Source of the DNA: a virus
Lineage: Duplodnaviria > Caudoviricetes
DNA length: 24,280 nt
Virus record (IMG/VR): IMGVR_UViG_3300034993_000055
Location: 1-24,280 of that record
Direction: 5' to 3' (one strand)
Shown here: one piece after another, positions 1-24,280 of the stretch
Layout of the letters: every line of letters begins with the position of its first letter
Numbering within the stretch: position 1 is the stretch's first letter
The notes under the pieces: model-generated
What the model saw: only the letters and a program-made list of their open reading frames with translations
What the model was told of the DNA's origin: nothing
Databases searched by the model: none
Made by a program: the position numbers and the translations under genes

Positions 1-62
1 CTTTGCGCTTTGGAGGTATCAGCGGTCACGACTACGCGTAAGGCAGCGGCGTCAATTGCCAT
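1..62 (-). CDS. Tape measure protein, N-terminus (partial, runs off window)
   Basis: ATG at 62 preceded by GGAG. Reads MAIDAAALRVVVTADTSKAQ, the typical L-x-V-x-V-x-A-D-T-S tape measure start. Directly follows the tail chaperone pair. Confidence 0.85.
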   Translation of the reverse strand, partial: MAIDAAALRVVVTADTSKAQ

Positions 63-85
63 TTAGGAAAGCTCCAATATACAAT
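56..85 (+). promoter_or_regulatory. Putative sigma70-type promoter, antisense to the late operon
   Basis: TTGCCA (56-61), 18-nt spacer, TACAAT (80-85). A 6-nt gap places +1 at G92. Confidence 0.6.
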
Positions 86-91
86 CTGTTC

Positions 92-187
92 GGCTCCGGC
101 ACTCACGGGTGGAAACCTGTAGCGGTTCGACTCCGCTGGCATGTTGGCACACAGCAGGTGAACAATTTCCTGTGCTCCGCTGGAGCC
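92..187 (+). ncRNA. Candidate structured small RNA with tRNA-like T-arm
   Basis: 9-bp closing stem GGCTCCGGC (92-100)/GCTGGAGCC (179-187). Hairpin ACGGGT-GGAA-ACCTGT (105-120, GNRA loop). T-arm AGCGG-TTCGACT-CCGCT (121-137). Third hairpin GCAGG..CCTGT (154-173). G-U pairs, GNRA loop and T-loop only work on the + strand. Fills most of the intergenic gap. Confidence 0.6.
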
Positions 188-429
188 TAGCCCCGCTTTC
201 TCTTGGCCGCTTTGCTGGCGCGCTCCTGCCGCTTGCGTGTGACTTCATTTTCAATCGCTTCAAATTTGAGCGCATGATTCATCCAGTACACCGACTGTTG
301 CTCAAGCTCCCACGGTGGCACGCCCACGTATTTGGCAGCCCGAAAGAGCGCGTACTCATGCGGCACATACCCTGCTTTGCCATCCTGCGTCAGGTACAGG
401 GTCAGCGCCTGAACGTCTTCACTTTTGGG
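187..429 (-). CDS. Tail assembly chaperone frameshift extension (gpT part of a lambda gpGT-like fusion)
   Basis: The -1 frame is open from the slippery site: PKSEDVQALTLYLTQDG...AAKYVGVPPWELEQQSVYWMNHAL...KRKRG*. It lies between the chaperone and tape measure genes and has no convincing start of its own. Confidence 0.8.
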   Translation of the reverse strand, partial: PKSEDVQALTLYLTQDGKAGYVPHEYALFRAAKYVGVPPWELEQQSVYWMNHALKFEAIENEVTRKRQERASKAAKRKRG

Positions 430-782
430 GCTAAGTCCTCGCCGATGGCAGTCACAATGTGGCCCAAGAGCGCATTGGGGAAGGTCATCAAATTCTCTTT
501 GGTGGGCGGCAAGGGTTCGCCATCCTCCACGATGTCCCACGATACGAGCAACTCGGCTAGACGTTCCGCCAACTGTTCGGCGTTGCCCGCCAACGTGTCC
601 CCTATGGACACGTCGCCGTCCCCATTCCTGTGGTCTTCGGCCTCTTGCCTGAGTCTGGCTAATTCCGCTTCTTTGGCGGGCGTCATGCCATCCGGCTTAT
701 AGGTGACGGTAATGGCCTCGCCAAAGTAATCGACGCGGATGGAGCGCAGGACTGCCGCTATCTTGCTTCTTTCTACTGGCAT
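402..782 (-). CDS. Tail assembly chaperone (gpG-like)
   Basis: 126-aa acidic protein directly after the tail tube gene, with LLVSWDIVEDGEPLPPT motif; ends at a slippery sequence. Confidence 0.85.
   Translation of the reverse strand: MPVERSKIAAVLRSIRVDYFGEAITVTYKPDGMTPAKEAELARLRQEAEDHRNGDGDVSIGDTLAGNAEQLAERLAELLVSWDIVEDGEPLPPTKENLMTFPNALLGHIVTAIGEDLAPKVKTFRR
423..429 (-). other. Programmed -1 ribosomal frameshift heptamer C CCA AAA
   Basis: Minus strand GCC CCA AAA GTG gives an X XXY YYZ heptamer in the correct phase near the chaperone 3' end, with an open -1 frame downstream. Confidence 0.8.
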
Positions 783-2986: not shown

Positions 2987-3348
2987 TAGCCGTTCCGCTT
3001 GGGTACGGCGGGAGCGTCAGGCTTGTCCTTCGGCTCATTGAGTGGCTTGGGGATGCTCGTCACATCTTCCTCGCCGGATGGCTGCTTGGTGACGACGGTG
3101 GCGCTGGCAATGTCGGCCTCGGTATGCACTTTGGCGTCAGGATTGAGCGGCTTGGGCATGGCGTCACCGGCGGCTCTGGCCGCCGCTTTCTTGTCCTTGA
3201 CCTCGCCTGTCTCAGCGTCAATCTCGACATAGCCCTGCTCTAGCAATGCTTTCTCAACATCGGAACCGACAACCGCTGTTTCGATGCGGCCGGTCGAAGG
3301 GTGCTTGTAGGTCTTGGTCTCTGGTGCTTTTGGCTCACGTTCTGCCAT
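2986..3348 (-). CDS. Hypothetical protein, Lys/Pro/Ala-rich (possible virion accessory)
   Basis: Start moved to ATG 3348 behind AAGGAG. Low-complexity C-terminus with duplicated PKPLN. Confidence 0.65.
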   Translation of the reverse strand: MAEREPKAPETKTYKHPSTGRIETAVVGSDVEKALLEQGYVEIDAETGEVKDKKAAARAAGDAMPKPLNPDAKVHTEADIASATVVTKQPSGEEDVTSIPKPLNEPKDKPDAPAVPKRNG

Positions 3349-7160: not shown

Positions 7161-7402
7161 TTCTTAGCGTCCACGGCTCTCGCCTTCTTAGCCGCCCCTG
7201 GCGCGTACTTAGCGGCACGGTTGATGATGTTCTTACGCGCTGCGCTGCTCTTGGCATGGCCGCGTAGACGGATGGCGCTGACGGCGCTCTTACGGTCAAA
7301 GACAGGAAACTTTTTGCCCTTGCCCACGCCATGCTTGCGCCGCGCCGCTGCCGAGACGCCGCCGCTTTTCGTGCGATTCCGCTTTGTTCCACGTTTTGCC
7401 AT
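7157..7402 (-). CDS. Small, very basic protein (possible nucleic-acid-binding or virion core protein)
   Basis: Start moved to ATG 7402 (TGATG overlap, GGAGG RBS). 81 aa, K/R/A/G-rich with only two Asp and no Glu; KKFPVFDRKSAVSAIRLRGHA core. Confidence 0.7.
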   Translation of the reverse strand: MAKRGTKRNRTKSGGVSAAARRKHGVGKGKKFPVFDRKSAVSAIRLRGHAKSSAARKNIINRAAKYAPGAAKKARAVDAKK

Positions 7403-8049
7403 CAAGCCACCTCCAGTAACGGCAATTGCCATTGCGCTTGCTCAATACGCCGTTGAGCGATGGCGAAATACTCAGGTGAGATTTCGCATCCTATAAAGTT
7501 GCGCCCTGTTTTCACCGCTGCGACTCCCGTCGTACCGCTGCCCATAAACGGGTCAAAGATGGTATCGCCTGGTTGGGTGTAGTTTTCGATGCACCATTTC
7601 ATAAGTGATAGCGGCTTCTGCGTTGGATGTTCTTTGTCATTTGATTGTCCCTGCAAGCTCAAGTCCCGAAAGCAATAAACGCCGCAACCGCCCTTGCGCC
7701 ATGCTAGATCGGCGTCACTCAGAAACGAACCCAATCCCGTATCGTATCGCTTGAGCCATACCAAGACTGACCCCGTTGGTAATTTGTCCGAAAAGTGATG
7801 AAATCCCCACAGGATCACCTTGTCGAAATGCAGAAATGGCGTCGGGTCAAATGGCCTATCATCGTTAGCTATCGTCACGCCAAAATGCCGCGTTGGAACA
7901 TCTTTGGTAGTTCCATGCCTGCTATCACTTGGCCCGCGCACCACTCGACCATCCCATCCCATCCCGTAAGGTGGATCGGTAATCACAGCGTCAATCCCCG
8001 TCAAGGTTGGCAGGATGTCCAGACAATCATTCAGATGGAGCGTTACCAT
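7402..8049 (-). CDS. DNA amino-methyltransferase (N6-A/N4-C, beta class)
   Basis: DAVITDPPY catalytic motif, HPTQKP, then DPFMGSGTTG SAM-binding motif. Confidence 0.95.
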   Translation of the reverse strand: MVTLHLNDCLDILPTLTGIDAVITDPPYGMGWDGRVVRGPSDSRHGTTKDVPTRHFGVTIANDDRPFDPTPFLHFDKVILWGFHHFSDKLPTGSVLVWLKRYDTGLGSFLSDADLAWRKGGCGVYCFRDLSLQGQSNDKEHPTQKPLSLMKWCIENYTQPGDTIFDPFMGSGTTGVAAVKTGRNFIGCEISPEYFAIAQRRIEQAQWQLPLLEVA

Positions 8050-9433: not shown

Positions 9434-9692
9434 TCACCTTCTCTAACCAGAATGTCGTGCCCTTTTCTCGCCAAGAGGTGTCAAATTTTATTGCGTTTTC
9501 AGCAGTCACGAGATGAAAGCTAAGCAGGCGATCTTCTGGACTATCCTCATAGACCGCTAAAAAACTGCCGTCATCAAACCCGAAATCAAACGAGCTATCT
9601 CCTCTATCAAAGAAATGCACGGAAATAATTCGCTTGCCGAGTACCAAATCAACAAAACGTTTTGTGAAGGATTGAGCGTCCTTTTCTGTCAT
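9423..9692 (-). CDS. Hypothetical protein between terL and portal (AT-richer)
   Basis: 89 aa, ATGA-coupled to the terL stop; no recognised motif. Confidence 0.6.
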   Translation of the reverse strand: MTEKDAQSFTKRFVDLVLGKRIISVHFFDRGDSSFDFGFDDGSFLAVYEDSPEDRLLSFHLVTAENAIKFDTSWREKGTTFWLEKVNDG

Positions 9693-11066
9693 CCCTGGTA
9701 TGCGCCTCCTGTGCGCCGCACGCTCGCTGGCGTCAGTTCGTTAAATGCGCCGCTAGACGCATCCATAATGTCATCATGCGCCAGATCGGGCTGCCCGTGC
9801 ATATGTGTGAGCCAGCGCCCATTCCATGCGCCGCGCAACAACTTAACGTTGCCTGCCAGAGCTTGCGCCGATAATGCCCTGGCGCGTGTCAACTTATCGC
9901 CTTGCGGTCTAACCCCACGCGCATCATAGCCCGCTAGTTTGGTGGCAAGATAGCGATTGTCGCGCTTGCCGCTTGCACCGCCCTCCATCTCCCACCGCAC
10001 CGCGACGGATTTGCCGTCTTGAGAAGCGGTATTGAGCAGTAGATCATCAATAGCCGCTGGGCCTTCGCGCTCCTCGATACAGTCCAGCACATAATAAAGG
10101 TCGCCCACCCGTCGCATTAGCACCCCTGCCGTATAGTCTGGGTCATCTTTGGCGAGTTTCTTTTCGCTGGCTGCCAAGTCCCAAAAGCGCACATCTGTCC
10201 CACCTGTCGGCACTGCATCAACAACCGTGAACCAACTACGATTGAATACTTTGCCTGCTGTCGGTTTGACCAGCCAGTTTCCCCCGCGCTCTGGATCGCC
10301 GAGCAAACGTTCGCGCTCCACCAGCGGCAGCGCCATTAAGTTCGCCAGATATTCTGGATTTTGTTGTAACAAAATTCGATTGTCGTAGACGCTTGATTTG
10401 ATAAAAGTAAACGATTTCGGTTCGAGTGCCGGATAGCTTTCGCGTGACTCCTCCGGCGTTTCCGCCCAATGCAAAGTGTCATCAGCGACGACAAACCAGC
10501 GCAGCACTCCACATCGTTCAGGGATAGCCCACCCATCTTTATCGATATACCAGCCAACAAACTCATGAATCCAGCCGCCCGTCTCATCCTCTGGTGGCAC
10601 AGGGTTCATGGTGGCACGAATATAGGGACGCACGCCCGACATTGAACGCGAGCGGCTAAACATATACATAAACTGCACACGCTCAAAGTGCGGGAGTTCG
10701 TCCCATCCCATAAAGGCGAGGCCCGAACCCTGCCAATCAAAGCGATTCTTGGCGTGCTGCATATGGGCAAACTCTATTTTGGCTCCGCTTGCAAACTGCC
10801 ATGATAAATCGGCCTGATTGCTTTTCCCATGTAGAAGCGAATAGAGCTTTTCGGCGGTATCCCACAGCCCTTCTGGATTCGTAATTTGTGGATAAGTGCG
10901 CCGGAAAATCACAGCGCGGAAATCCCGATTGTGAATGTGTCTCAACGGCTCAAGCAAAAGCGAGTAACTTTTGCTAACCGCCCCCAGCGGCCCCGCCATA
11001 GAAAACAACGTCTGCCGAACTAGCCAGAAATTGTTCCTGGGGGCCTCGCTGGGGGCAAATCTCCAT
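9689..11066 (-). CDS. terL: Terminase large subunit, interrupted by a stop plus frameshift (4-nt insertion) in Walker A
   Basis: ATG 11066 reads MEICPQRGPQEQFLASSADVVFYGGAAGGG then TAG (10976-10974), C, and KSYSLLLEPLRH resumes at 10972. Downstream motifs are intact: AVIFRRT, Walker B FMGWDE, RATMNP, nuclease RFWDLAAS..DYTAG..HDDIMDA. Confidence 0.92.
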
Positions 11067-12196: not shown

Positions 12197-13417
12197 TTAA
12201 GCCGGTTCTGGTACAGCCGCTTCGACCAGCTCAGGCGTCTTACCTGTTACCGTTGCCCATCGCTCAAGAGCAACGGCCACATAGCCGGCATTGATCTCGA
12301 TGGCGAAGCAGCGACGCTGTAAATTCTCGGCAGCAATGAGCGTAGTGCCGGAACCGAGGAACGGCTCATAGACATCGCCTTCGTGGTTGCGGATTGGGCG
12401 CGCCATACATTCCAGCGGCTTTTGCGTGCTGTGGCCGCCCTCTACATTTTTATCCAGGTTGATCTCCCAAACGGTGCTGGCGTTGAAGTCCCCAATCCAA
12501 TGCGCCGTGCGTCCCTTCTTGACGGCGTACCAACAGGGCTCATGCTGGTAGGTGTAATGGCCTCGGCTGATCGGGAAGTTCGATTTGCGCCACATAATCT
12601 GGTTGCGAATTTGAAAGCCACTAGCCTGTAACGCAGACCCCGTGAGAATCACGTGGTCGCCTGGCGGCGACCACGTATAGGCCACGTCACCAGGGAATAG
12701 CCGCCACGCATCCGACCAATCTACGCGGTCATCATTCTCGACCTCGCCTACGCGGCGAGCCGCGTAGGCGAGGTGTCCTGCCGCGGCTGCCTCGTTACGC
12801 CAGGCCGGATCATAGCCCACGCCGTAAGGCGGGTCTGTTACCATGAGCGCCGGAACCTCACCCTGCAAGAGCCTCGCCACCACCGCCGCGTCGGTACAGT
12901 CGCCGCAGATGAGGCGGTGATCTCCCAACGCCCACAGGTCGCCCGAATTGACACCCCACTTCTGCCTAAGCTCCTCGGCCCTGTCAATCTGTGCAGGCGC
13001 ATCCACGACCGTAGGCGGATTGACCAGCCTAAGCAATTGCTCAAGCTCCTGCGCCGAGTAGCCCGCCGCCTCGACCAGCACAGGCTCCCGCGCTTGCAAC
13101 TCCTCAAGGATTGCCGCAAGCTGCGCCTGGTCAGGGTCGGACTGGCGCGCCAGTTCGTTGTCGGCCACGACGTAGGCCAATGCTTGCGCCTCCGTGAGCT
13201 GGTCTTGCACGTCGGCGCGGATAGTCTCCCACCCCAGAGAACGTGCCGCCAAGACGACGCCATGCCCCGCCAGGATGGTGTTGTTGCGCACGACGATTGA
13301 CCTGACTTGGCCGAAGGTTTCGAGGCTCTTGGCGATGCGTGCGATTTGGGCGTCGCTATGCTGGTTATAGTTGCGAGCGTGTGGTTGCAATTCTGCCAAC
13401 GGAATATCTTTGGTCAT
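12197..13417 (-). CDS. ParB-like N-terminal domain fused to a DNA amino-methyltransferase
   Basis: LQPHARNYNQH..ILAGHG..ADN ParB/Srx domain; GDLWALGDHRLICGD, TDPPY, HSTQKP and EPFLGSGTT motifs. Start at ATG 13417 (ATGA overlap). Confidence 0.93.
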   Translation of the reverse strand: MTKDIPLAELQPHARNYNQHSDAQIARIAKSLETFGQVRSIVVRNNTILAGHGVVLAARSLGWETIRADVQDQLTEAQALAYVVADNELARQSDPDQAQLAAILEELQAREPVLVEAAGYSAQELEQLLRLVNPPTVVDAPAQIDRAEELRQKWGVNSGDLWALGDHRLICGDCTDAAVVARLLQGEVPALMVTDPPYGVGYDPAWRNEAAAAGHLAYAARRVGEVENDDRVDWSDAWRLFPGDVAYTWSPPGDHVILTGSALQASGFQIRNQIMWRKSNFPISRGHYTYQHEPCWYAVKKGRTAHWIGDFNASTVWEINLDKNVEGGHSTQKPLECMARPIRNHEGDVYEPFLGSGTTLIAAENLQRRCFAIEINAGYVAVALERWATVTGKTPELVEAAVPEPA

Positions 13418-13740
13418 ACCACCGCCAAACTTCCCTCGATAAACCAGTCGCACCTGAACGTCTTAGCCGGCGTCTGCCCTGCTCCATACTCGGCTACAAA
13501 TTGCACTTGCAGATTGCCGCTATCCGCCACATCCGCAGCAGACAAGTCCCAGCGAAAGACACCGCCTGTGGCATCGGTGACGGTGAGTGTGCCGCTAATC
13601 GCACGCGTGACGCCAATGACCTGGATGTAGCCGCTCAGGGTCGCGCCCGTTAAATCTACCGGCGAACCATCCGCTTGCAGCCAACTCAGTAGGATGGAGG
13701 GGCGCAAAGCTCCAGCAATCCAATTGGGTAGTGATGACAT
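13414..13740 (-). CDS. BppU N-terminal-like Ig-fold virion protein
   Basis: DGSPVDLTGAT..VTDATGGVFRWDLSAADV..G..QF pattern of BppU-like fibre-attachment domains. Confidence 0.65.
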   Translation of the reverse strand: MSSLPNWIAGALRPSILLSWLQADGSPVDLTGATLSGYIQVIGVTRAISGTLTVTDATGGVFRWDLSAADVADSGNLQVQFVAEYGAGQTPAKTFRCDWFIEGSLAVV

Positions 13741-13742
13741 GG

Positions 13743-14138
13743 CTAGGCGTTCGCATCCGAAATTGAAAATGCGCTGATGGTAAAGCTCTGACCGACCGAA
13801 AAAGTCACGCTGTCCAAAATCATGTCAGCCGCCGATGTGCCACAACTGCCCTGCGCGTGCGTAGTGGCTCCCGCCTTGATACGGAAATGGCCTGCCGTCC
13901 CAGCGCCATCAGCACTTGGATCGCTCCAAACACCCGCTTTGGCCTTGCTGCCCCCACTCGCCGCCGCCATCCAGTCGCTTGGCAAAGAGAGCGAAGCGAG
14001 CAAAGTCCCCGAATCAGCCGCCGCACAATTGGCGGGTTGCGCCCCTGTCCTGATTTCAAGCGTCGGGGATGCGCCGATGACGGTCTCGATGGCATCTAAA
14101 CGTGCATCCCTTACACTCCCTGATAATTGCAAACTCAT
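13743..14138 (-). CDS. Conserved phage structural / fibre-associated protein
   Basis: 131 aa, Ala/Gly/Ser-rich: RDARLDAI..LEIRTGAQPA..GTLLA..ADGAGTAGHFRI..QGSCG; AAGGAG RBS. Confidence 0.65.
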   Translation of the reverse strand: MSLQLSGSVRDARLDAIETVIGASPTLEIRTGAQPANCAAADSGTLLASLSLPSDWMAAASGGSKAKAGVWSDPSADGAGTAGHFRIKAGATTHAQGSCGTSAADMILDSVTFSVGQSFTISAFSISDANA

Positions 14139-14150
14139 AGTTGACTCCTT

Positions 14151-16382
14151 CTATGAAACAATTGCGACCGCAGATGGGCCGTAGACCGTGCCCGTTTTGA
14201 CGGCAAAGGTTAAGGGTGATTCGCTGGCGACCAGCGTCGCCTCGCCTAGCGTTATTGACAGAGAGCCGCTGATGGCGGTGGCGACCAGCGTGCCCGTTGC
14301 AGCCAGCGTAGCCGCCCCTAGCGTCACGTTAACCGCCCCGCTTGCCCCTGATACCAGCGACCCCGTTGCGGCAAGCGTAGCCGCCCCCAGCGTGACGTTA
14401 GCGGTCGCCGTGATAGCAGCCCCGACCAACGTGCCTGTGGCGGCCAGCGTCGCCGGGGCAAGCGTAGCGTTGAGCGTGCCGTAACTGGTGGGCATCGCCA
14501 CAATAGGTTCTGGTGGTAGCGGGTAGGTGCCGCTGTCCCGCAACGTCGCCGCCCCGCCCAAGCTGCCGCTACAATAGTTGACCAGCACCGTTCCCGTTGG
14601 CGTGCTGGTCAACGTGATATTGACCTTGTTTGTGCCGTTGGCCGCTGTGCTGGTGATGGGCGCATTGGCCCCGTCATTCGTGACAATCCAACCCTCTTTG
14701 TCGCCGGCGTTGGCGAGTGACCCCTGCCCGCCTGTAAAGGTGACGGTGATGACGGTTCCTATGCGGGATGCACTGACTGCCTTTGGCCCGCGTGGCACTT
14801 CGCTGCCAGCAAAGTAGTGATAGAGGATCGTGCGCCACCAACGGTTTGTGAGCGTCGTCGCCTCGGTGTTGGTCGTCCAGTGCAAGCCGTCCACAAAATC
14901 CTGGTCGTGCGCCGTTGGCCCTGCCAGGATGTCGGCGTCATTGTCCCAACGGTTGATGATGGCAGAGCGAATGGCGTTGACATTCTCGTCGGTTGCCCCG
15001 GGTGAGTAGGAGCCAATACAGGCGGCGACTAGCTTCACCCCCGCCAATTGTGACTTGGCCGCTTGCATGTTGTCGAGCATCAGCGACAAGGCCGTCTGGT
15101 AATCGCTCTGCGTTGCCCCTTGCGCCGCGTCCCGCTCCCCCTGATACCACAAGATCGCCTTGACCGCATTGACGCCACTGTCCGTGACTTGCTGCAGGCA
15201 GTTGTTGTACTGCAAGCCACCCGCCGACCAGTCGGGGTCTACTGCCGTTAAGCCTGTCCCGCCCTCGGCTGTCGTGATAAAGGCCACAGGGTAGCCCGTT
15301 TGCGCCATGAGGTAGGTCGCCAGTTTCGGCCACACGCTGCCGTTGATACTGCCCGATTCGGAAGGGTCAATCAGTTCACGCCACACATCCAACTCATCAA
15401 AGACGGTGGCCTTGAGACTGCCATGCGAATAGACCTGCGGGTTGTCAAAGCGTCCCGCAGCGTTGGATTGCCCTGCCACCAAAAAGACATCCCCGATGCT
15501 CACAAAGGTCTTGGAGGCGTTGATGGCAGTGTCGTTGGTGTAACGCACTGTCAGCGTGCCTTGCCCCGCTGCTTGGTTAGTGAGCGTGCCGCTAAACGTG
15601 CCACCCGCAGGAGAGGCGACAATGGTCTGGTATGACCCGCCGTTGAAGGATGCCTCGATAGAGGTGGGCGTGCCACCGTAGAGGCCACTGATGGCAATGT
15701 CGGCCAGATTGCTGCCGTTGCGCTGATAGGTCTGGTAATTGCCTGGTGTGTTAAGGACGAGGCCCGTCGCCGTGTCGCCGTCGCCCTCTGACCCCGCCGC
15801 AAACCAGTTGTTGATCTCGGTGACGGTGAGAGCCGAGTCAAACTCGATGACACGGTACATCTCGCAGTTGACATAGGAGGCTGCGCCCGTGCCAGCGATG
15901 GAAATGCGCGCCGTTGCCGTTTCGGTGACAGCCCCGCTATCGGCAATCGTGGTCAGAGAGCCGCCGTCCGTACCTACATAGCCGACGGTCGTGACCCCGT
16001 TAAAGACGGCGGCGATAAAGGTCTTGTTGGTGGTGTCAAAGGTGTACGCCCCGGCCGTCGTCGCCCGCCGCGTGCCGATGCGCAGGTTCAGCCCCTGCGT
16101 GCTATTGGTACTGAGGGTATCGCTGGATGCGCCGCCAACGCTGTGGTTGCACATAAATCTAAGGCTGGTGTAGGTGGCGGCGGTCGCCTTCATCCACAGG
16201 ATCCAGGTGCGGCTGCCGGTCGGGCGCGTGTAGGCGGCATTGGTTGCGCTCTGGCTTGTGCCGTTAAAGCTGTAGCCTGTGCCGCCCCCCACCGTTGGCG
16301 GCGAACCCACCGGCGTCAGCGTCAGCCCGCCCACACTGTCGGTGAAATCCCCGTTTAGTTTCCAGTCGTGAATTTTGGTCAT
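14151..16382 (-). CDS. Multidomain fibre-like protein: LamG/ConA-like lectin domain + SGNH (SASA / sialate O-acetylesterase-type) esterase + Ig-like domain + C-terminal repeats
   Basis: VFLVAGQSNA (catalytic Ser), ILWYQGERD and DGLH motifs. N-terminal WKLNGDFTDSVGG..YSFNG..FDSALTVTEI LamG-like pattern. Start taken at ATG 16382. Confidence 0.85.
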   Translation of the reverse strand: MTKIHDWKLNGDFTDSVGGLTLTPVGSPPTVGGGTGYSFNGTSQSATNAAYTRPTGSRTWILWMKATAATYTSLRFMCNHSVGGASSDTLSTNSTQGLNLRIGTRRATTAGAYTFDTTNKTFIAAVFNGVTTVGYVGTDGGSLTTIADSGAVTETATARISIAGTGAASYVNCEMYRVIEFDSALTVTEINNWFAAGSEGDGDTATGLVLNTPGNYQTYQRNGSNLADIAISGLYGGTPTSIEASFNGGSYQTIVASPAGGTFSGTLTNQAAGQGTLTVRYTNDTAINASKTFVSIGDVFLVAGQSNAAGRFDNPQVYSHGSLKATVFDELDVWRELIDPSESGSINGSVWPKLATYLMAQTGYPVAFITTAEGGTGLTAVDPDWSAGGLQYNNCLQQVTDSGVNAVKAILWYQGERDAAQGATQSDYQTALSLMLDNMQAAKSQLAGVKLVAACIGSYSPGATDENVNAIRSAIINRWDNDADILAGPTAHDQDFVDGLHWTTNTEATTLTNRWWRTILYHYFAGSEVPRGPKAVSASRIGTVITVTFTGGQGSLANAGDKEGWIVTNDGANAPITSTAANGTNKVNITLTSTPTGTVLVNYCSGSLGGAATLRDSGTYPLPPEPIVAMPTSYGTLNATLAPATLAATGTLVGAAITATANVTLGAATLAATGSLVSGASGAVNVTLGAATLAATGTLVATAISGSLSITLGEATLVASESPLTFAVKTGTVYGPSAVAIVS
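14221..14480 (-). repeat. Four degenerate coding repeats (TL-G/A-x-ATL-A/V-A-T/S, about 23-25 aa period)
   Basis: ATLAPATLAATGTLV / VTLGAATLAATGSLV / VTLGAATLAATGTLV / ITLGEATLVASES. On + DNA: recurring AGCGT(A/C)GCC..AGCGT. Confidence 0.8.
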
Positions 16383-16395
16383 AAATACGCCCGAA

Positions 16396-16518
16396 TCAAT
16401 AGAGGTCTCGCAGGAACGCAAAGAGCCAAAAGGCCGTCCCCACCAGGCTGATAACCAGAATGTAGGCCAACAAGCGACGCATCAGAAACCAGTAAGACTC
16501 CCGCGGCGGCTGAATCAC
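16396..16518 (-). CDS. Small single-pass membrane protein (40 aa; not in ORF track), possible lysis accessory
   Basis: AGAAGGAG RBS, GTG start, MIQPPRESYWFLMRRLLAYILVISLVGTAFWLFAFLRDLY*. Confidence 0.65.
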   Translation of the reverse strand: MIQPPRESYWFLMRRLLAYILVISLVGTAFWLFAFLRDLY

Positions 16519-16533
16519 GCTCGTCTCTCCTTC

Positions 16534-16716
16534 TCATAAGCCTGCAAGAAGCCCAAAGCGGTTGACGATGAAAATCAATAATAGGATGGCAATCAGCGCA
16601 ATGATGACCACCCTGATTGGTTGCGGCATCGCAATCTGGTTCAGCACCCACATTAAAAGGTAGACAACGATCGCGATGATGATGATTGCAATGAGCAAAC
16701 CCAAAAGACCTTCCAC
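16534..16716 (-). CDS. Two-TM small membrane protein, candidate holin
   Basis: 60 aa with two long hydrophobic helices separated by MPQPIR; AAGGAGG RBS; immediately after the endolysin. Confidence 0.7.
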   Translation of the reverse strand: MEGLLGLLIAIIIIAIVVYLLMWVLNQIAMPQPIRVVIIALIAILLLIFIVNRFGLLAGL

Positions 16717-16730
16717 GGTATACCTCCTTC

Positions 16731-18599
16731 TTAACGCCCTGCTCCTGGCCCCAATGGTGACCCTGTCAGCAAATAGGCATCCCTGGGATTAAACCTGCCC
16801 TTTGGGTAGCCGTAGGTTACGTCCAGATAGTTTCCGTCACTGTCTGAGCCGCGTAGCTCAAAGTGGACGTGCGGGCCCGTGCTGTTGCCCGTGCTGCCAC
16901 TGAGGGCAATCGTCTGCCCGCGCTGCACAGCCTGTCCCACACGCACGCCGATGCTCTCCAGATGGGCGTAAAAGCTCTGGAAGTGCAATGCCTTGTGCCA
17001 CACGCGGCAGTATCTACCGTACGAAACATCCTCACCCGTATAGACGACCAGGCCATCGGCAATGGACAGGACGGGCGTGTCAAGGCGGCAAGCGATGTCC
17101 ATGCCGTTATGCCCGATACAGCCAAAGCGTGCCGGCGGCGTGCCAAAGTCGTCGGTGATCGGCCCATCCACTGGCCACAAGAGCGGCGCAAGCTCCACGG
17201 GCGGCTTGATGGGTGGCTCTATGGGCGGGATGGGTCGCTCGGCAATCGTGTACTCGAAATCAATAAAAGTGCTTGTGTGAATCGACGGGTTGCCATGCGC
17301 GCCCATGCCGATGCCCATTGCCTTGTCGGATGGGTTGCCATCATCTACCCAGATGCTAAATTCATTGAGCGAAGATGACATCGGGAAATCATAGTTCCAG
17401 CCGAGAATGTGCTGTGCTACCTTGCTAATAACGGTCGTATGTCCTGACGGCCATTCCACGCGTAGTTCGACGCCCGCCACTTGCTTTCCATCATCGATGA
17501 CCCTACCCAAAATATGATGATCCGGCCCCGCCGCGTCCGCCTCTTCCTCATTCAAGTGCTCGGCAAAGGTGATGCGCCAGTAGCCGGTTCCGGCGGGCGG
17601 CGAGATGAAGTCAAACTCAACGCCGCGTGCAGCAAGCACAGGGTCAATTTCACGGTCTGATATAGGTAGCTCAGGTATCCACTCACCATCAGGCGGCAAG
17701 GGCGGCTCTGGAATGGGTGACGGAATGGGCGAGTGATAGCCCTGCTCCACCGCTGCCCGATATTCCGCAATCACATCGTCGCGGCCTTCGATATAGAAAT
17801 GGTCGTGGCGCGGATAGCGAAAGAAGGCCACGCAATGAATGAGCGGCGCATTGTTGGAACGATTCCAAAAGTCAATCTCCCCCAGCATGGCAGGCATCAG
17901 CCCCACCGCCTGCCACGGCCCATCGCCATTGGCTTCGGTGATATACGCGGGCAAATGGCTATACTCTAGCGGGATGGCGTCGCAATAATCTCGGTAACAC
18001 AAAAAGTTGTAATACCTGTTCTGGAATGGCGCATCCATACGGGCCGTAGAGGTGACTAGGTTCACGTCATAGCCGTGCGTATACGAGTGCAAGGCATAGC
18101 CGTCAAACTCGCCGTGTAGCAGGCTCAGTACGTCTGTAAAGTAGGTAATCCAATCACCTTTGGGATTGCCCTCATATTTGCACTCGTCATTCCACGGCCC
18201 CGACGCGGCGACTAAGACTTCATCCGAGGCGTGACCTGGCAGGGCGTGAATGGCATCACGGCAGATCTTGAAACAGGCGGCATAGTGCCACGGATAGATG
18301 GGCGCATGGTCGGGCCATTCCCTGCGGAGGTTACATTCATTCCCAATGACCCATCGGCGGCAGCCGCTAGACCCTGCCACGTAAGCGGCCACCTTTTGGG
18401 CGAACCAGTTGTACATGTCGGGATGGGGCAATGTGCCGGTACTGCCGTACCCGTGATTGAGCCTGGTTATCCACTTGAGCGACGTTGGGTAGGCGATAGG
18501 CTGCGGATTCTCGGACAGAGACACGGTATCTATGGCCCAGGTGTCAGGCGGCGCAATGGCGACAGATTCCCGATCATGTAATGCGGCCAAGTTGGGCAT
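16731..18599 (-). CDS. Endolysin-like protein: clan-A-like glycoside hydrolase barrel + middle beta domain + M23 metallopeptidase
   Basis: M23 motifs HNGMD, YAHL and GSTGNSTGPHVHFE. N-terminal VIGNECN (acid/base), ALHSY and YITEAN (nucleophile). Two Pro-rich linkers. Confidence 0.85.
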   Translation of the reverse strand: MPNLAALHDRESVAIAPPDTWAIDTVSLSENPQPIAYPTSLKWITRLNHGYGSTGTLPHPDMYNWFAQKVAAYVAGSSGCRRWVIGNECNLRREWPDHAPIYPWHYAACFKICRDAIHALPGHASDEVLVAASGPWNDECKYEGNPKGDWITYFTDVLSLLHGEFDGYALHSYTHGYDVNLVTSTARMDAPFQNRYYNFLCYRDYCDAIPLEYSHLPAYITEANGDGPWQAVGLMPAMLGEIDFWNRSNNAPLIHCVAFFRYPRHDHFYIEGRDDVIAEYRAAVEQGYHSPIPSPIPEPPLPPDGEWIPELPISDREIDPVLAARGVEFDFISPPAGTGYWRITFAEHLNEEEADAAGPDHHILGRVIDDGKQVAGVELRVEWPSGHTTVISKVAQHILGWNYDFPMSSSLNEFSIWVDDGNPSDKAMGIGMGAHGNPSIHTSTFIDFEYTIAERPIPPIEPPIKPPVELAPLLWPVDGPITDDFGTPPARFGCIGHNGMDIACRLDTPVLSIADGLVVYTGEDVSYGRYCRVWHKALHFQSFYAHLESIGVRVGQAVQRGQTIALSGSTGNSTGPHVHFELRGSDSDGNYLDVTYGYPKGRFNPRDAYLLTGSPLGPGAGR

Positions 18600-19231
18600 C
18601 AGACAAGCTCCAGCAAGGGCAATTGATATTGCGCCTGCTCAATCCTGCGCTGTGCGATGGCGAAATAGGTCGGGTCAATCTCGCAGCCTATAAAATTTCT
18701 GTTCATCTTGGCACAAGCGACGCCCGTTGTGCCGCTACCCATGAACGGGTCAAAAATTGTTGCGCCCGCAAGGGTCAATAGATGAATCTGCTTTGATGCC
18801 CACTCATACGGTTTTGGGCAGGGATGACCTTTGAGAGAATCATCCGGCTTGATAGTTGCCCGTATTACGTCGGAGGCGGCGACGGCGGGCGTGCCATATA
18901 ATGCAATCGGTTCCCAGTTATTGAATCCGACTACACATCGCCCCATTGCGGCAGGTTTCCACCAGGCCAGCCACCAATCAGGCGGCGCAATCCGCGCCCA
19001 CTCGCTTAAATTCGCCTGACCTACGCTGATAGCCATTGGCCCTCTACAAATGCGCCGCAATTCAGCGAACCACTCCCCGCACCAATCAGCATAATCAGGA
19101 CGATCATCCATGTAGGTGGCATAATCCAAGTCCACATTGTAGGGAGGGTCAGTAATCACGGCATCCACGCTCCCGTCAGCCATGCCGCGCATGGTTTCGA
19201 TACAATCACCTAAATTCAGCGTGACGCTCAC
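18599..19231 (-). CDS. DNA amino-methyltransferase (N6-A/N4-C, beta class)
   Basis: DAVITDPPY, HPCPKP and DPFMGSGTTG motifs. Confidence 0.95.
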   Translation of the reverse strand: MSVTLNLGDCIETMRGMADGSVDAVITDPPYNVDLDYATYMDDRPDYADWCGEWFAELRRICRGPMAISVGQANLSEWARIAPPDWWLAWWKPAAMGRCVVGFNNWEPIALYGTPAVAASDVIRATIKPDDSLKGHPCPKPYEWASKQIHLLTLAGATIFDPFMGSGTTGVACAKMNRNFIGCEIDPTYFAIAQRRIEQAQYQLPLLELV

Positions 19232-21080: not shown

Positions 21081-21121
21081 CTGGTTGCTCCTTTTGGTAG
21101 GGGCGCGTTTGCGCCAATAAC

Positions 21122-21150
21122 AAAAAAAACCACCAAGATTAACTTGGTGG
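21122..21150 (-). terminator. Intrinsic terminator
   Basis: Minus strand CCACCAAG-TTAAT-CTTGGTGG followed by 8 T. Confidence 0.85.
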
Positions 21151-21175
21151 CGGGTCTGTGGGACGTGGCCTTGTG

Positions 21176-21388: not shown

Positions 21389-21417
21389 AGGATATAGCCC
21401 ACAGCACAATATGTCAA
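21389..21417 (-). promoter_or_regulatory. Sigma70-type promoter
   Basis: TTGACA (21417-21412), 17 nt, TATCCT (21394-21389). Confidence 0.75.
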
Positions 21418-22300: not shown

Positions 22301-22515
22301 TGCAGACGCTCCGGCGGCTTTGCGCCAAAGGGGTAATCCCGTTCGTCTGGCGGATGGAATACCACTGGATCATCGTCCACGATTTCATCCTTCAACTTCT
22401 CCACATGCCCGTTGGTTTCGCGCATCTTGTCCCGTATCTCCGTGAGCACGGTCAGGATGCCCATAAAGCCGAGCAGCAAGATGCAGGCAATGGCAACGAG
22501 GAGGGCGTTGGTCAT
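22297..22515 (-). CDS. Small protein with N-terminal TM helix
   Basis: ATG 22515 (ATGA overlap): MTNALLVAIACILLLGFMGILTVLTEIRDK... Confidence 0.6.
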   Translation of the reverse strand: MTNALLVAIACILLLGFMGILTVLTEIRDKMRETNGHVEKLKDEIVDDDPVVFHPPDERDYPFGAKPPERLQ

Positions 22516-23156
22516 AGCGACGGCTCCCGGATAGCGTCCATCAAATACCGCCCAATAAAGTTTGTATACGCGGGCGGAATCGCCTCGGCTAACTCGCCCT
22601 GTGTCATCCAGCCAATACCCATCGCTTCCCGGCAATACGGCACGTTCGACATATGCCCAACCACATGCACATACTCCCCGTCCTTTGGGGGTCTGCCCAT
22701 CTTGGCGTGTCTGGCGTTGGCAGACGGAGCCAACATAAACGGCACGTCAAAGTTGCACTCAAAGAGGCGCGGGCGCATGGTACGGAGGCCAAACATAGAC
22801 CCAACCAAGAGAGTAGGGTTGAGCAGCGGCGCACCCTGTACGTTCTCAATCACGTAGGGTTTGCCCGTTGCCCGTAACGCTTGCCGGGTATGCTCAATCA
22901 GCATGGGATGGTCATTGCCCCGTAGGTTGCGCGCCTTGCTATAGCCCTGGCAAGGTGGGCTGGCATGGATCGCCGCGTAGCCGCTCAGGTCTGCCGTCGC
23001 CAGGTATTCCAGCGCATCCCCTAAAATAAACACATCCCCCGCATAGCGCGGCTGTGGGCGGTTATCAATGCCGGTCACATGAAAGCCTGCCATCTGGTAT
23101 CCTCTGGCAGCGCCACCGGCCCCTGCGAAAAGATCAAGCAATTTGGGTCTGTTCAT
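22512..23156 (-). CDS. DNA cytosine-5 methyltransferase (compact phage type)
   Basis: Motif I LDLFAGAGG, motif IV ASPPCQ, motif VI VIENV, motif VIII-like RPRLF, motif X-like EAIPPAYT. Confidence 0.92.
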   Translation of the reverse strand: MNRPKLLDLFAGAGGAARGYQMAGFHVTGIDNRPQPRYAGDVFILGDALEYLATADLSGYAAIHASPPCQGYSKARNLRGNDHPMLIEHTRQALRATGKPYVIENVQGAPLLNPTLLVGSMFGLRTMRPRLFECNFDVPFMLAPSANARHAKMGRPPKDGEYVHVVGHMSNVPYCREAMGIGWMTQGELAEAIPPAYTNFIGRYLMDAIREPSL

Positions 23157-23491
23157 AACGGCTCAATCCCTATCCCCGCACACTCGTAGAGCCACCGCTC
23201 CAGTTCCCCCACCGTCCGCACATGCTCTATCTGCCTGCGCAGCATGGCTAGGTCAGCCACATGCGTTACGAAGATGGGAGCCCAAATGTAATAGGCACAA
23301 TATTCGACCACCAGCCTAAGTTCGCCAGCCGTGGGCTCACGCTCAAACTGTGGCGCATCCAGGTGGCGCAAAAGCACGCGGATGGCGTAGGAGGTGACGC
23401 CGCCGTTGTAGCTCAGGCAAGAGTAGGGCGCGCCGCACCAGTAGGGTTCGTAGAGGTCTGTTAGGGTGTTCTCGGATCCGTTGACAATCAT
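23153..23491 (-). CDS. Hypothetical protein
   Basis: Start at ATG 23491 (ATGA overlap); 112 aa ending GIEPL. Confidence 0.6.
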   Translation of the reverse strand: MIVNGSENTLTDLYEPYWCGAPYSCLSYNGGVTSYAIRVLLRHLDAPQFEREPTAGELRLVVEYCAYYIWAPIFVTHVADLAMLRRQIEHVRTVGELERWLYECAGIGIEPL

Positions 23492-24280
23492 GGCGTTGGC
23501 TCCATCCCATCTAAGCAATCCACACAGAGCGGCTGGAATAAGCGCATCTGCCCCGCCTTCTCTTGGCGTACCCAACCTGGCGTCTCTTCGCCCCATCCCC
23601 AACCAAACTTGTCCTTAACGGGACGCTCCAAGTCGTCAAGCCACTTGCCCCATTCAGGAAAGTAGTAAGAGACCTCCTCACGCGTGGCCTGATTCTGGCT
23701 CGTACCGCACAGACATTCGCCCGACCGACATAGCGTTTGGGTGACAGGATTGCAGGGCGCATCCACTTTGTCTAGGTACTCGTCGCGATCTTCTTTGCTC
23801 CAATCGTGAATGACGTTGACCCAGATATTATTGCCGTCGGCGCGGATGGGATTGCTCAGATTGCTGGCACGGTTGGCGGATTCAGAAGTACGCGCGCCGT
23901 TGAGGAGGAGGATCGGACGATTGCGGGCGCGCTGGCGGATATGGCGGCTGATAGTGCGCCGAAAATGCGTCTCTTTGAGGATATGATACGCATAGCTATG
24001 CGCCCGCACGCCGCGGCCAAAGAAACCCTTGCGGTTGACGTACTCAGCGTAAGCGTCGCCCGCGTTAGCTTCGATATAGGTGGGCGATTCACCAGCAGCA
24101 AACGTCCGCACAAAGTCGGTGGTGGCGGCGATGCCCGTGCCTGTGACGCCGTGCAGGATATGGCTAATAGGCGTCGCCAGTTCTTTGGCGACCAGATAGG
24201 CGCATAGGCTATCCTTGCCGCCGCTGATCATGCTGACAATCGCATAGGGCGAATACTCGGCAATGGCGCGCTCGATGATG
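23488..24280 (-). CDS. PAPS-reductase-family (PP-loop) protein, 5' end outside the window
   Basis: SGGKDS PP-loop, LNGARTSESANR, VIHDWS and SGECLCG motifs. The frame stays open to the window edge (IIERAIAEYSPYAIVSMISGGKDS). Confidence 0.88.
   Translation of the reverse strand, partial: IIERAIAEYSPYAIVSMISGGKDSLCAYLVAKELATPISHILHGVTGTGIAATTDFVRTFAAGESPTYIEANAGDAYAEYVNRKGFFGRGVRAHSYAYHILKETHFRRTISRHIRQRARNRPILLLNGARTSESANRASNLSNPIRADGNNIWVNVIHDWSKEDRDEYLDKVDAPCNPVTQTLCRSGECLCGTSQNQATREEVSYYFPEWGKWLDDLERPVKDKFGWGWGEETPGWVRQEKAGQMRLFQPLCVDCLDGMEPTP

Follow-up and report, generated by a model that had tools for sequence, protein, structure and literature searches.

A structured, RNA-only moron may occupy the chaperone/tape-measure junction of a phage with a likely Chloroflexota host

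What is the short stretch of DNA that separates the tail assembly chaperone genes from the tape measure gene in the viral record IMGVR_UViG_3300034993_000055, and does it make an RNA? The window, by which we mean the whole stretch analysed, comprises all 24,280 bases of this record, about 24% of the genome, and carries head, connector and terminase genes on its minus strand. Sequencing runs that contain the window come from sediment and freshwater DNA, and none of them is recorded as RNA. Relatives of the chaperone extension were found at 19 loci in bacterial genomes, the best in an Anaerolinea record and the others in Chloroflexota and Armatimonadota records. Because such relatives reside in bacterial genomes, several of them of Chloroflexota, a Chloroflexota host is likely and a temperate life style may be inferred for the phage; neither an integrase nor a repressor gene is present in the 24% of the genome that the window covers. 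The following features define the junction:

Positions 1 to 62, minus strand: start of the tape measure gene (ATG 62-60), truncated by the contig end and putatively named by its position.
Positions 63 to 186, no strand: 124-bp insertion, a moron-like cassette, delimited by alignments to the empty-site relatives L005, L002 and L111.
Positions 72 to 75, minus strand: likely Shine-Dalgarno sequence GGAG of the tape measure gene, judged from sequence, 9 nt before the ATG and provided by the insertion.
Positions 187 to 782, minus strand: tail assembly chaperone (402-782) with a likely frameshift extension ending at the stop codon 189-187, named by position and conservation.

Several other minus-strand genes of the window deserve mention in their own right. 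The terminase large subunit gene (10960-11066) has a typical N-terminus and then a stop inside the Walker A codons, which are split by four extra bases; the remainder lies in the frame of the ORF 9689-11008, and homologues of the subunit align from residue 13 only. This break may represent a broken gene, an assembly error or recoding, and since the gene looks broken, the phage may be decaying. Directly upstream of it, and preceded by an extended -10-like site, lies a GIY-YIG endonuclease gene (Pfam PF01541; 11072-11758), which probably encodes a homing endonuclease of the free-standing type. There are four DNA methyltransferase genes (7402-8049, 12197-13453, 18599-19231 and 22512-23156), one of them fused to a ParB-like domain, and two methylases in the window have blocks of 75-78% DNA identity in common. 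A PAPS-reductase-like gene is located at 23488-24231. Upstream of the terminase genes and away from the tail operon, the region 13743-18599 encodes a virion protein, a tail-fibre-like protein whose gene has repeats of 69-72 nt, and a peptidase.

How did the gap at the junction arise? Neither the chaperone nor its extension has a PHROG or Pfam match, and the N-terminus of the tape measure gene is that of the long ORF following the chaperone extension in relatives L002, L110 and L111. Close homologues of the chaperone (P0002-P0018) share 65-91% identity with it. In close relatives the stop codon of the extension is joined directly to the tape measure start, and alignments to relatives show that the interval from the stop (189-187) to the ATG (62-60) is longer by 121-124 bases in the window. 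With the trinucleotide CTA at both ends on the minus strand, the boundaries are uncertain by about 3 nt. By these alignments the stretch 63-186 is an insertion, and it breaks the stop-start coupling of the extension and tape measure genes. The junction was reached in five of nine viral tail-tube loci and in six of seven metagenome loci, and all of these sites are empty, as they are in the closest relatives (L110 and L111). We found 99 chaperone-extension loci, 95 of which were usable because they reach at least 150 bases past the stop (some loci repeat records of another set); none of these 95 junctions has a T-arm, the hairpin discussed below, within 300 bases of the stop. The next long gene was called within 31 nt in 62 of 80 viral loci, farther off in 13 and not at all in five. 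A 637-nt contig from a second study (X2, study P2) is identical to window positions 1-217, insertion included, and a contig from a sediment run (X3, study P3) belongs to a relative with an empty site that has 10 differences in 101 bases and is 90% alike in the chaperone extension. The window may itself derive from X1, which has a 2.5-kb contig; contigs of X3-X6, X9 and X10 do not span the insert, and this says nothing for or against its presence.

No credible protein gene was found in the inserted DNA. An ORF at 109-702 on the plus strand was rejected, as it has neither a Pfam match nor a visible ribosome site and relatives likewise contain antisense frames of 83-144 codons, and an ORF at 63-275 on the minus strand was rejected for want of a Pfam match. 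Two relatives do have antisense ORFs in the same chaperone/tape-measure gap, namely L070 (2171-2820) and L089 (2180-2715), which we regard as antisense protein morons. The former ORF encodes a 182-residue protein with a hydrophobic N-terminus, and the latter lies behind a promoter matching 10 of 12 consensus positions, with its -35 element at 12 nt from the tape measure ATG; both proteins are candidates for superinfection exclusion.

What the inserted DNA might encode instead is suggested by the plus strand, which had been read from sequence alone as a promoter-defined, tRNA-like structured RNA antisense to the tail operon. The elements that bear on this idea are:

Positions 56 to 85, plus strand: predicted sigma-70 promoter (-35 at 56-61, -10 at 80-85), called on consensus match only.
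Positions 92 to 187, plus strand: putative structured RNA of 96 nt with a closing stem of 9 bp, from fold prediction.
Positions 105 to 120, plus strand: GNRA hairpin, placed like the variable arm of a class II tRNA, with which an alternative pairing competes.
Positions 146 to 178, plus strand: third arm in a co-optimal four-way fold, with its loop at 160-164, from fold prediction.

The promoter assignment of the sequence-only reading is borne out as a match: TTGCCA and TACAAT, separated by 18 nt, fit the consensus at 10 of 12 positions, and G92, seven bases past the -10, is both the predicted +1 and the first paired base of the closing stem. The window holds two such 10/12 sites, with 1.8 expected. 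The -35 lies outside the insertion and overlaps the tape measure start codon, and the -10 lies within the insertion; because the start codon supplies the -35, chance has to be judged on the -10 alone, for which it ranges from 0.5% when the whole insert is shuffled to 3% when the AT-rich part is. Among the 32 relatives starting with Ala, the second codon is GCA in five. There is no terminator-like site on the plus strand in positions 1-1000; the earliest are at 1467-1480 (weak) and 3168-3187 (stronger), and such sites are no commoner than in shuffled sequence. On the minus strand, at 21390-21417 and 21120-21165, the second 10/12 promoter of the window precedes an ORF of 62 codons that has a hairpin and T-run behind it, possibly a small independent unit.

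Two helices dominate the predicted fold. The closing stem (92-100/179-187) comprises 9 bp, including one G.U, with pair probabilities of 0.98-1.0, and the T-arm at 121-137 is perfect, with pair probabilities of 0.86-0.98; both were part of the original proposal and both persist when the transcript is extended to position 300. Among shuffles, 3.75% have an enclosing helix of 9 bp. No other perfect T-arm exists in the window on either strand, and chance would produce one at a rate of 0.00055 in the shuffled insert and 0.115 anywhere in the shuffled window. The GNRA hairpin proposed at 105-120 can form, but its probability is just 0.43, as a competing fold with swapped strands equals it in energy (both -41.1 kcal/mol). 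These equal-energy folds result from an imperfect internal direct duplication (98-139 versus 146-183) whose second copy has neither the T-arm's 5' strand nor its loop, and which was matched by none of 1000 shuffles, none of 137 long tRNAs and three of 250 window tiles. The two remaining hairpins that had been envisaged, at 154-173 and, acceptor-like, at 139-155, have pair probabilities of 0.03-0.06 and 0.01-0.03, respectively, and overlap, with G154 and C155 common to both. A four-way junction survives in altered form: a co-optimal one exists with the arm 146-178, but the version first drawn lies 4.3 kcal/mol above the minimum, and the corresponding five-helix fold 5.6 kcal/mol above it. Compared to shuffles, the overall fold has z = -2.55 on the plus and -1.61 on the minus strand. 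Of the 31 pairs on the plus strand four are G.U, which become A.C mismatches on the minus strand, and the T-loop, the GNRA loop and these four pairs can be read on the plus strand only. A promoter-defined, structured plus-strand RNA is thus supported by the stems, the T-arm, the strand asymmetry and insertion at a known moron site. Because the T-arm, the enclosing stem and a well-spaced -10 are jointly unlikely by chance, we consider it probable that the sequence represents a real RNA unit, either here or in a donor.

Does this RNA have relatives? Searches of viral, GTDB, phage, plasmid and host-class genome sequences gave no homologue among the matches listed. Pattern scans of the viral collection gave 0, 16, 31, at least 120 (of about 270), 17 and 70 matches, those listed being tRNAs, other T-hairpins and coding DNA; a GTDB pattern scan gave none. 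Patterns were absent from 301 genomes of the phylum and matched twice in 400, neither match being a homologue. By blastn, phages and plasmids yielded chance matches only, and 401 genomes from the class to which the host likely belongs gave no hit. A one-sequence model (R1) found nothing in 150 and in 5 genomes; at E<=0.05 it matched in two of 121 and one of 150 genomes (one tRNA-Leu and two coding regions), and among 50 related viral records it gave three matches at E 0.12-0.16 that bear no likeness to the element. In sum, the model was run on some 425 genomes and on these 50 viral records, with one-sequence models and exact patterns being blind to distant relatives. As no homologue was found, there is no sign of selection, and the single-copy element is a lead, not yet a family. 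Literature searches, which covered mainly freely available papers, listed no description of it.

Other phages do carry intergenic RNAs with a T-arm not called by ARAGORN (L015/L024, L017/L025, L022, L016 and L122/L136; also the L171 group, L191/L206/L208, L355/L392/L403 and L343). Twenty such loci were scanned against Rfam without yielding a family at the matched place. In these RNAs, unlike in the window element, the closing stem mostly comes immediately behind the T-arm; as some of them are present in several contigs, covariation is testable there.

To which known RNA might the element be assigned? The sequence-only reading had likened it to YrlA, a bacterial Y RNA with a circularly permuted tRNA module. 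As the available text of PMC4201824 defines it, YrlA carries the motif GNCGAA and an acceptor hairpin flanked by T and D stem-loops, and a Ro60 gene lies next to it. The element resembles YrlA and bacterial Y RNAs in its size of about 100 nt, its paired ends and the order of terminal stem, V-like hairpin and central T-arm (available text of PMC4201824; RF02553). Of the defining features, however, only the T stem-loop is seen in the contig. The motif GNCGAAN0-1G, expected near the RNA 5' end from that text, does not occur in 86-110; there is no acceptor hairpin and no D-arm; and the models for YrlA (RF02553) and Deinococcus Y RNA (RF01053) give no hit on the contig at E<=10. D-arm likeness of the element has a P of about 0.6, and D-loop-like motifs at 142-149 and 153-162 were rejected, with chance values of 0.6 and 0.30. 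Circular permutations pass ARAGORN only at 80-87% of threshold, where controls pass too (68% at 80%, 52% at 85%). By comparison, a YrlA-like RNA in a Chloroflexota genome (L320 1501-1590, minus strand, genome G523) was detected at E 3e-8 and its permutations pass at full threshold; its T, acceptor and D arms are clear, and it scores 42 bits, under the Rfam cut-off of 69. As had been stated, no Ro60 (TROVE) gene, which would be expected within about 4 kb of a Y RNA, is found in the contig; the contig ends 55 nt from the promoter. A divergent Y RNA, with its Ro60 encoded in the host or in the 76% of the genome outside the window, is very improbable. The related suggestion of a decoy for anticodon nucleases loses its footing, since the element has no anticodon arm to support it.

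Tests for other families were likewise negative. ARAGORN calls no tRNA or tmRNA on the element, and the tRNA model RF00005 gives no hit on the contig at E<=10. Three Rfam scans over the element returned a T-arm match alone (6 bits against the tmRNA model, cut-off 84), with no retron or CRISPR-repeat family. A ToxI mimic was rejected, RF02519 being empty on the contig at E<=10, and so was C4 antisense RNA, for which RF01695 and the c4-a1b1 target motif RF03163 were empty at the same threshold (control on P1: 68.8 and 51 bits). By the tests run, the element is outside the YrlA, C4, tRNA and tmRNA families. Might it then be inert debris, the partly duplicated and decayed 3' half of a Leu- or Ser-like class II tRNA from a phage attachment site? 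The variable-arm and T-arm geometry and register agree with such a half: the best one-sequence-model matches are variable and T arms of tRNA-Ser and tRNA-Leu, 95-134 is in the modal 40-nt register of Anaerolineae tRNA-Leu(CAG), and a profile comparison gives P=0.016 versus shuffles and 0.045 versus hairpin-kept controls. Related phages carry tRNA halves of this kind, and the internal duplication, seen in no shuffle, would fit. The profile score is nonetheless -14 bits, as opposed to 25-38 for true tRNAs; the 5' half, acceptor strand and D-arm are mismatched, with neither acceptor stem nor CCA; the flanked T-arm occurs in none of 301 Chloroflexota genomes searched; and debris would leave unexplained both the -10 and a closing stem that starts at the predicted +1. 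Given the weak profile match and the unmatched 5' half, acceptor and D-arm, 3'-half ancestry of the hairpin-plus-T-arm unit is suggestive only, and the debris explanation, while a serious contender, seems rather unlikely to us.

What, then, might the insertion do? It likely makes a small accessory RNA that is not a Y RNA. Our best explanation, held tentatively and itself doubtful, is that the insertion is an RNA-only moron, a folded head capping an antisense read-through against the tail genes. From the predicted backward promoter, transcription would begin at G92, and as no terminator-like site follows before about 1470, the transcript would run antisense over the chaperone genes. The folded 96-nt head might cap this read-through transcript, its paired 5' end and T-arm serving to stabilise or protect it. 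We envision that the antisense RNA could pair with incoming tail mRNA and thereby cause superinfection exclusion, as by BTP1 STnc6030, so that a lysogen would be protected against related phages. We infer every one of these steps: transcription, the temperate life style, 5'-end stabilisation and exclusion by pairing. The sediment relative on X3 lacks the insertion, and a target for exclusion thus exists. Antisense action needs a promoter alone, however, and this reading therefore does not explain the retention of the T-arm; it also has against it that the start codon largely accounts for the -35 and that the closing stem ends at the insertion edge, which fits a discrete RNA better. Any function at all must reckon with the single copy, the free -35 and the apparently broken terminase gene.

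Because the stem spans exactly the distance from +1 to the insertion edge, a discrete RNA of about 96 nt, trimmed to the closing stem and acting in trans, is nearly as likely as antisense read-through, and thus also doubtful. It might act as a T-arm decoy for host tRNA-recognising proteins, or pair C4-style, through linker 138-145 and loop 160-164, with a target beyond the contig. The T-arm is intact, small RNAs at moron sites are known (available text of PMC4104026), and in the C4 consensus, too, a tetraloop hairpin adjoins a 5-bp hairpin, with a single-stranded linker after it. P1 C4 (RF01695) shares the closing stem as well, but the element has an extra third arm, sits in the tail operon, has in the window no a/b target sites above shuffles and no icd/ant genes nearby, and is not matched by the C4 and c4-a1b1 models. 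Anticodon, acceptor and D arms are not above chance, and pairing of 138-178 to the late strand of the window (-37.7 kcal/mol) falls within the range of shuffles (-35 to -41), with no better partner. Alternatively, the insertion may be a cis element of the late minus-strand mRNA, tuning tape measure translation or mRNA processing: it provides a Shine-Dalgarno sequence, breaks stop-start coupling and folds on the minus strand too. We deem this quite improbable, as the T-loop, GNRA and G.U pairs belong to the plus strand, and the predicted accessibility of the ribosome site (0.54) is that of empty relatives (0.47-0.56). Least probable of all is a MITE-like miniature insertion element, for which a 3-nt direct repeat flanking the insert and a 6-nt inverted repeat near both ends could be cited; these repeats are short and offset, and a second copy is found neither in the window nor in the 401 host-class genomes. 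More speculatively, the element might stand for a new class of mobile, RNA-only phage morons, in which a four-way RNA of about 96 nt presents the variable arm and T-arm of a tRNA as a unit with no other tRNA part, serving as a decoy for a host defence that senses tRNAs or toggling between the two folds of equal energy that the internal duplication creates; we think this improbable.

If the RNA-only moron were expressed and protective, the junction slot would also take a protein-free cassette that is invisible to gene callers and Rfam, and it would offer a small, testable RNA for the exclusion of one phage by another in a host that has been little studied and likely belongs to Chloroflexota. 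How does it compare with known systems? Morons at the chaperone/tape-measure junction are already known as protein genes. HK97 gene 15, the first named moron, occupies this very junction and mediates superinfection exclusion; its product is a membrane protein and the gene has a promoter and a terminator, whereas the insertion has no credible protein (available text of PMC3594210). Like a moron, the insertion lies between conserved genes and is absent from relatives, but it lacks the terminator that typical morons have. The BTP1 prophage transcript STnc6030 is antisense to late structural genes, as proposed here, and excludes its own phage without lowering induction; it lies within genes, has been demonstrated by experiment and is not described, in the available text of PMC7067206, as having an inserted, structured T-arm head. 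The lambdoid anti-sRNAs of the AgvB/AsxR class are likewise small RNA genes at moron insertion sites; unlike the element, they are 51-60 nt long, Hfq-bound and located after PR', with no T-arm reported in the available text of PMC4104026.
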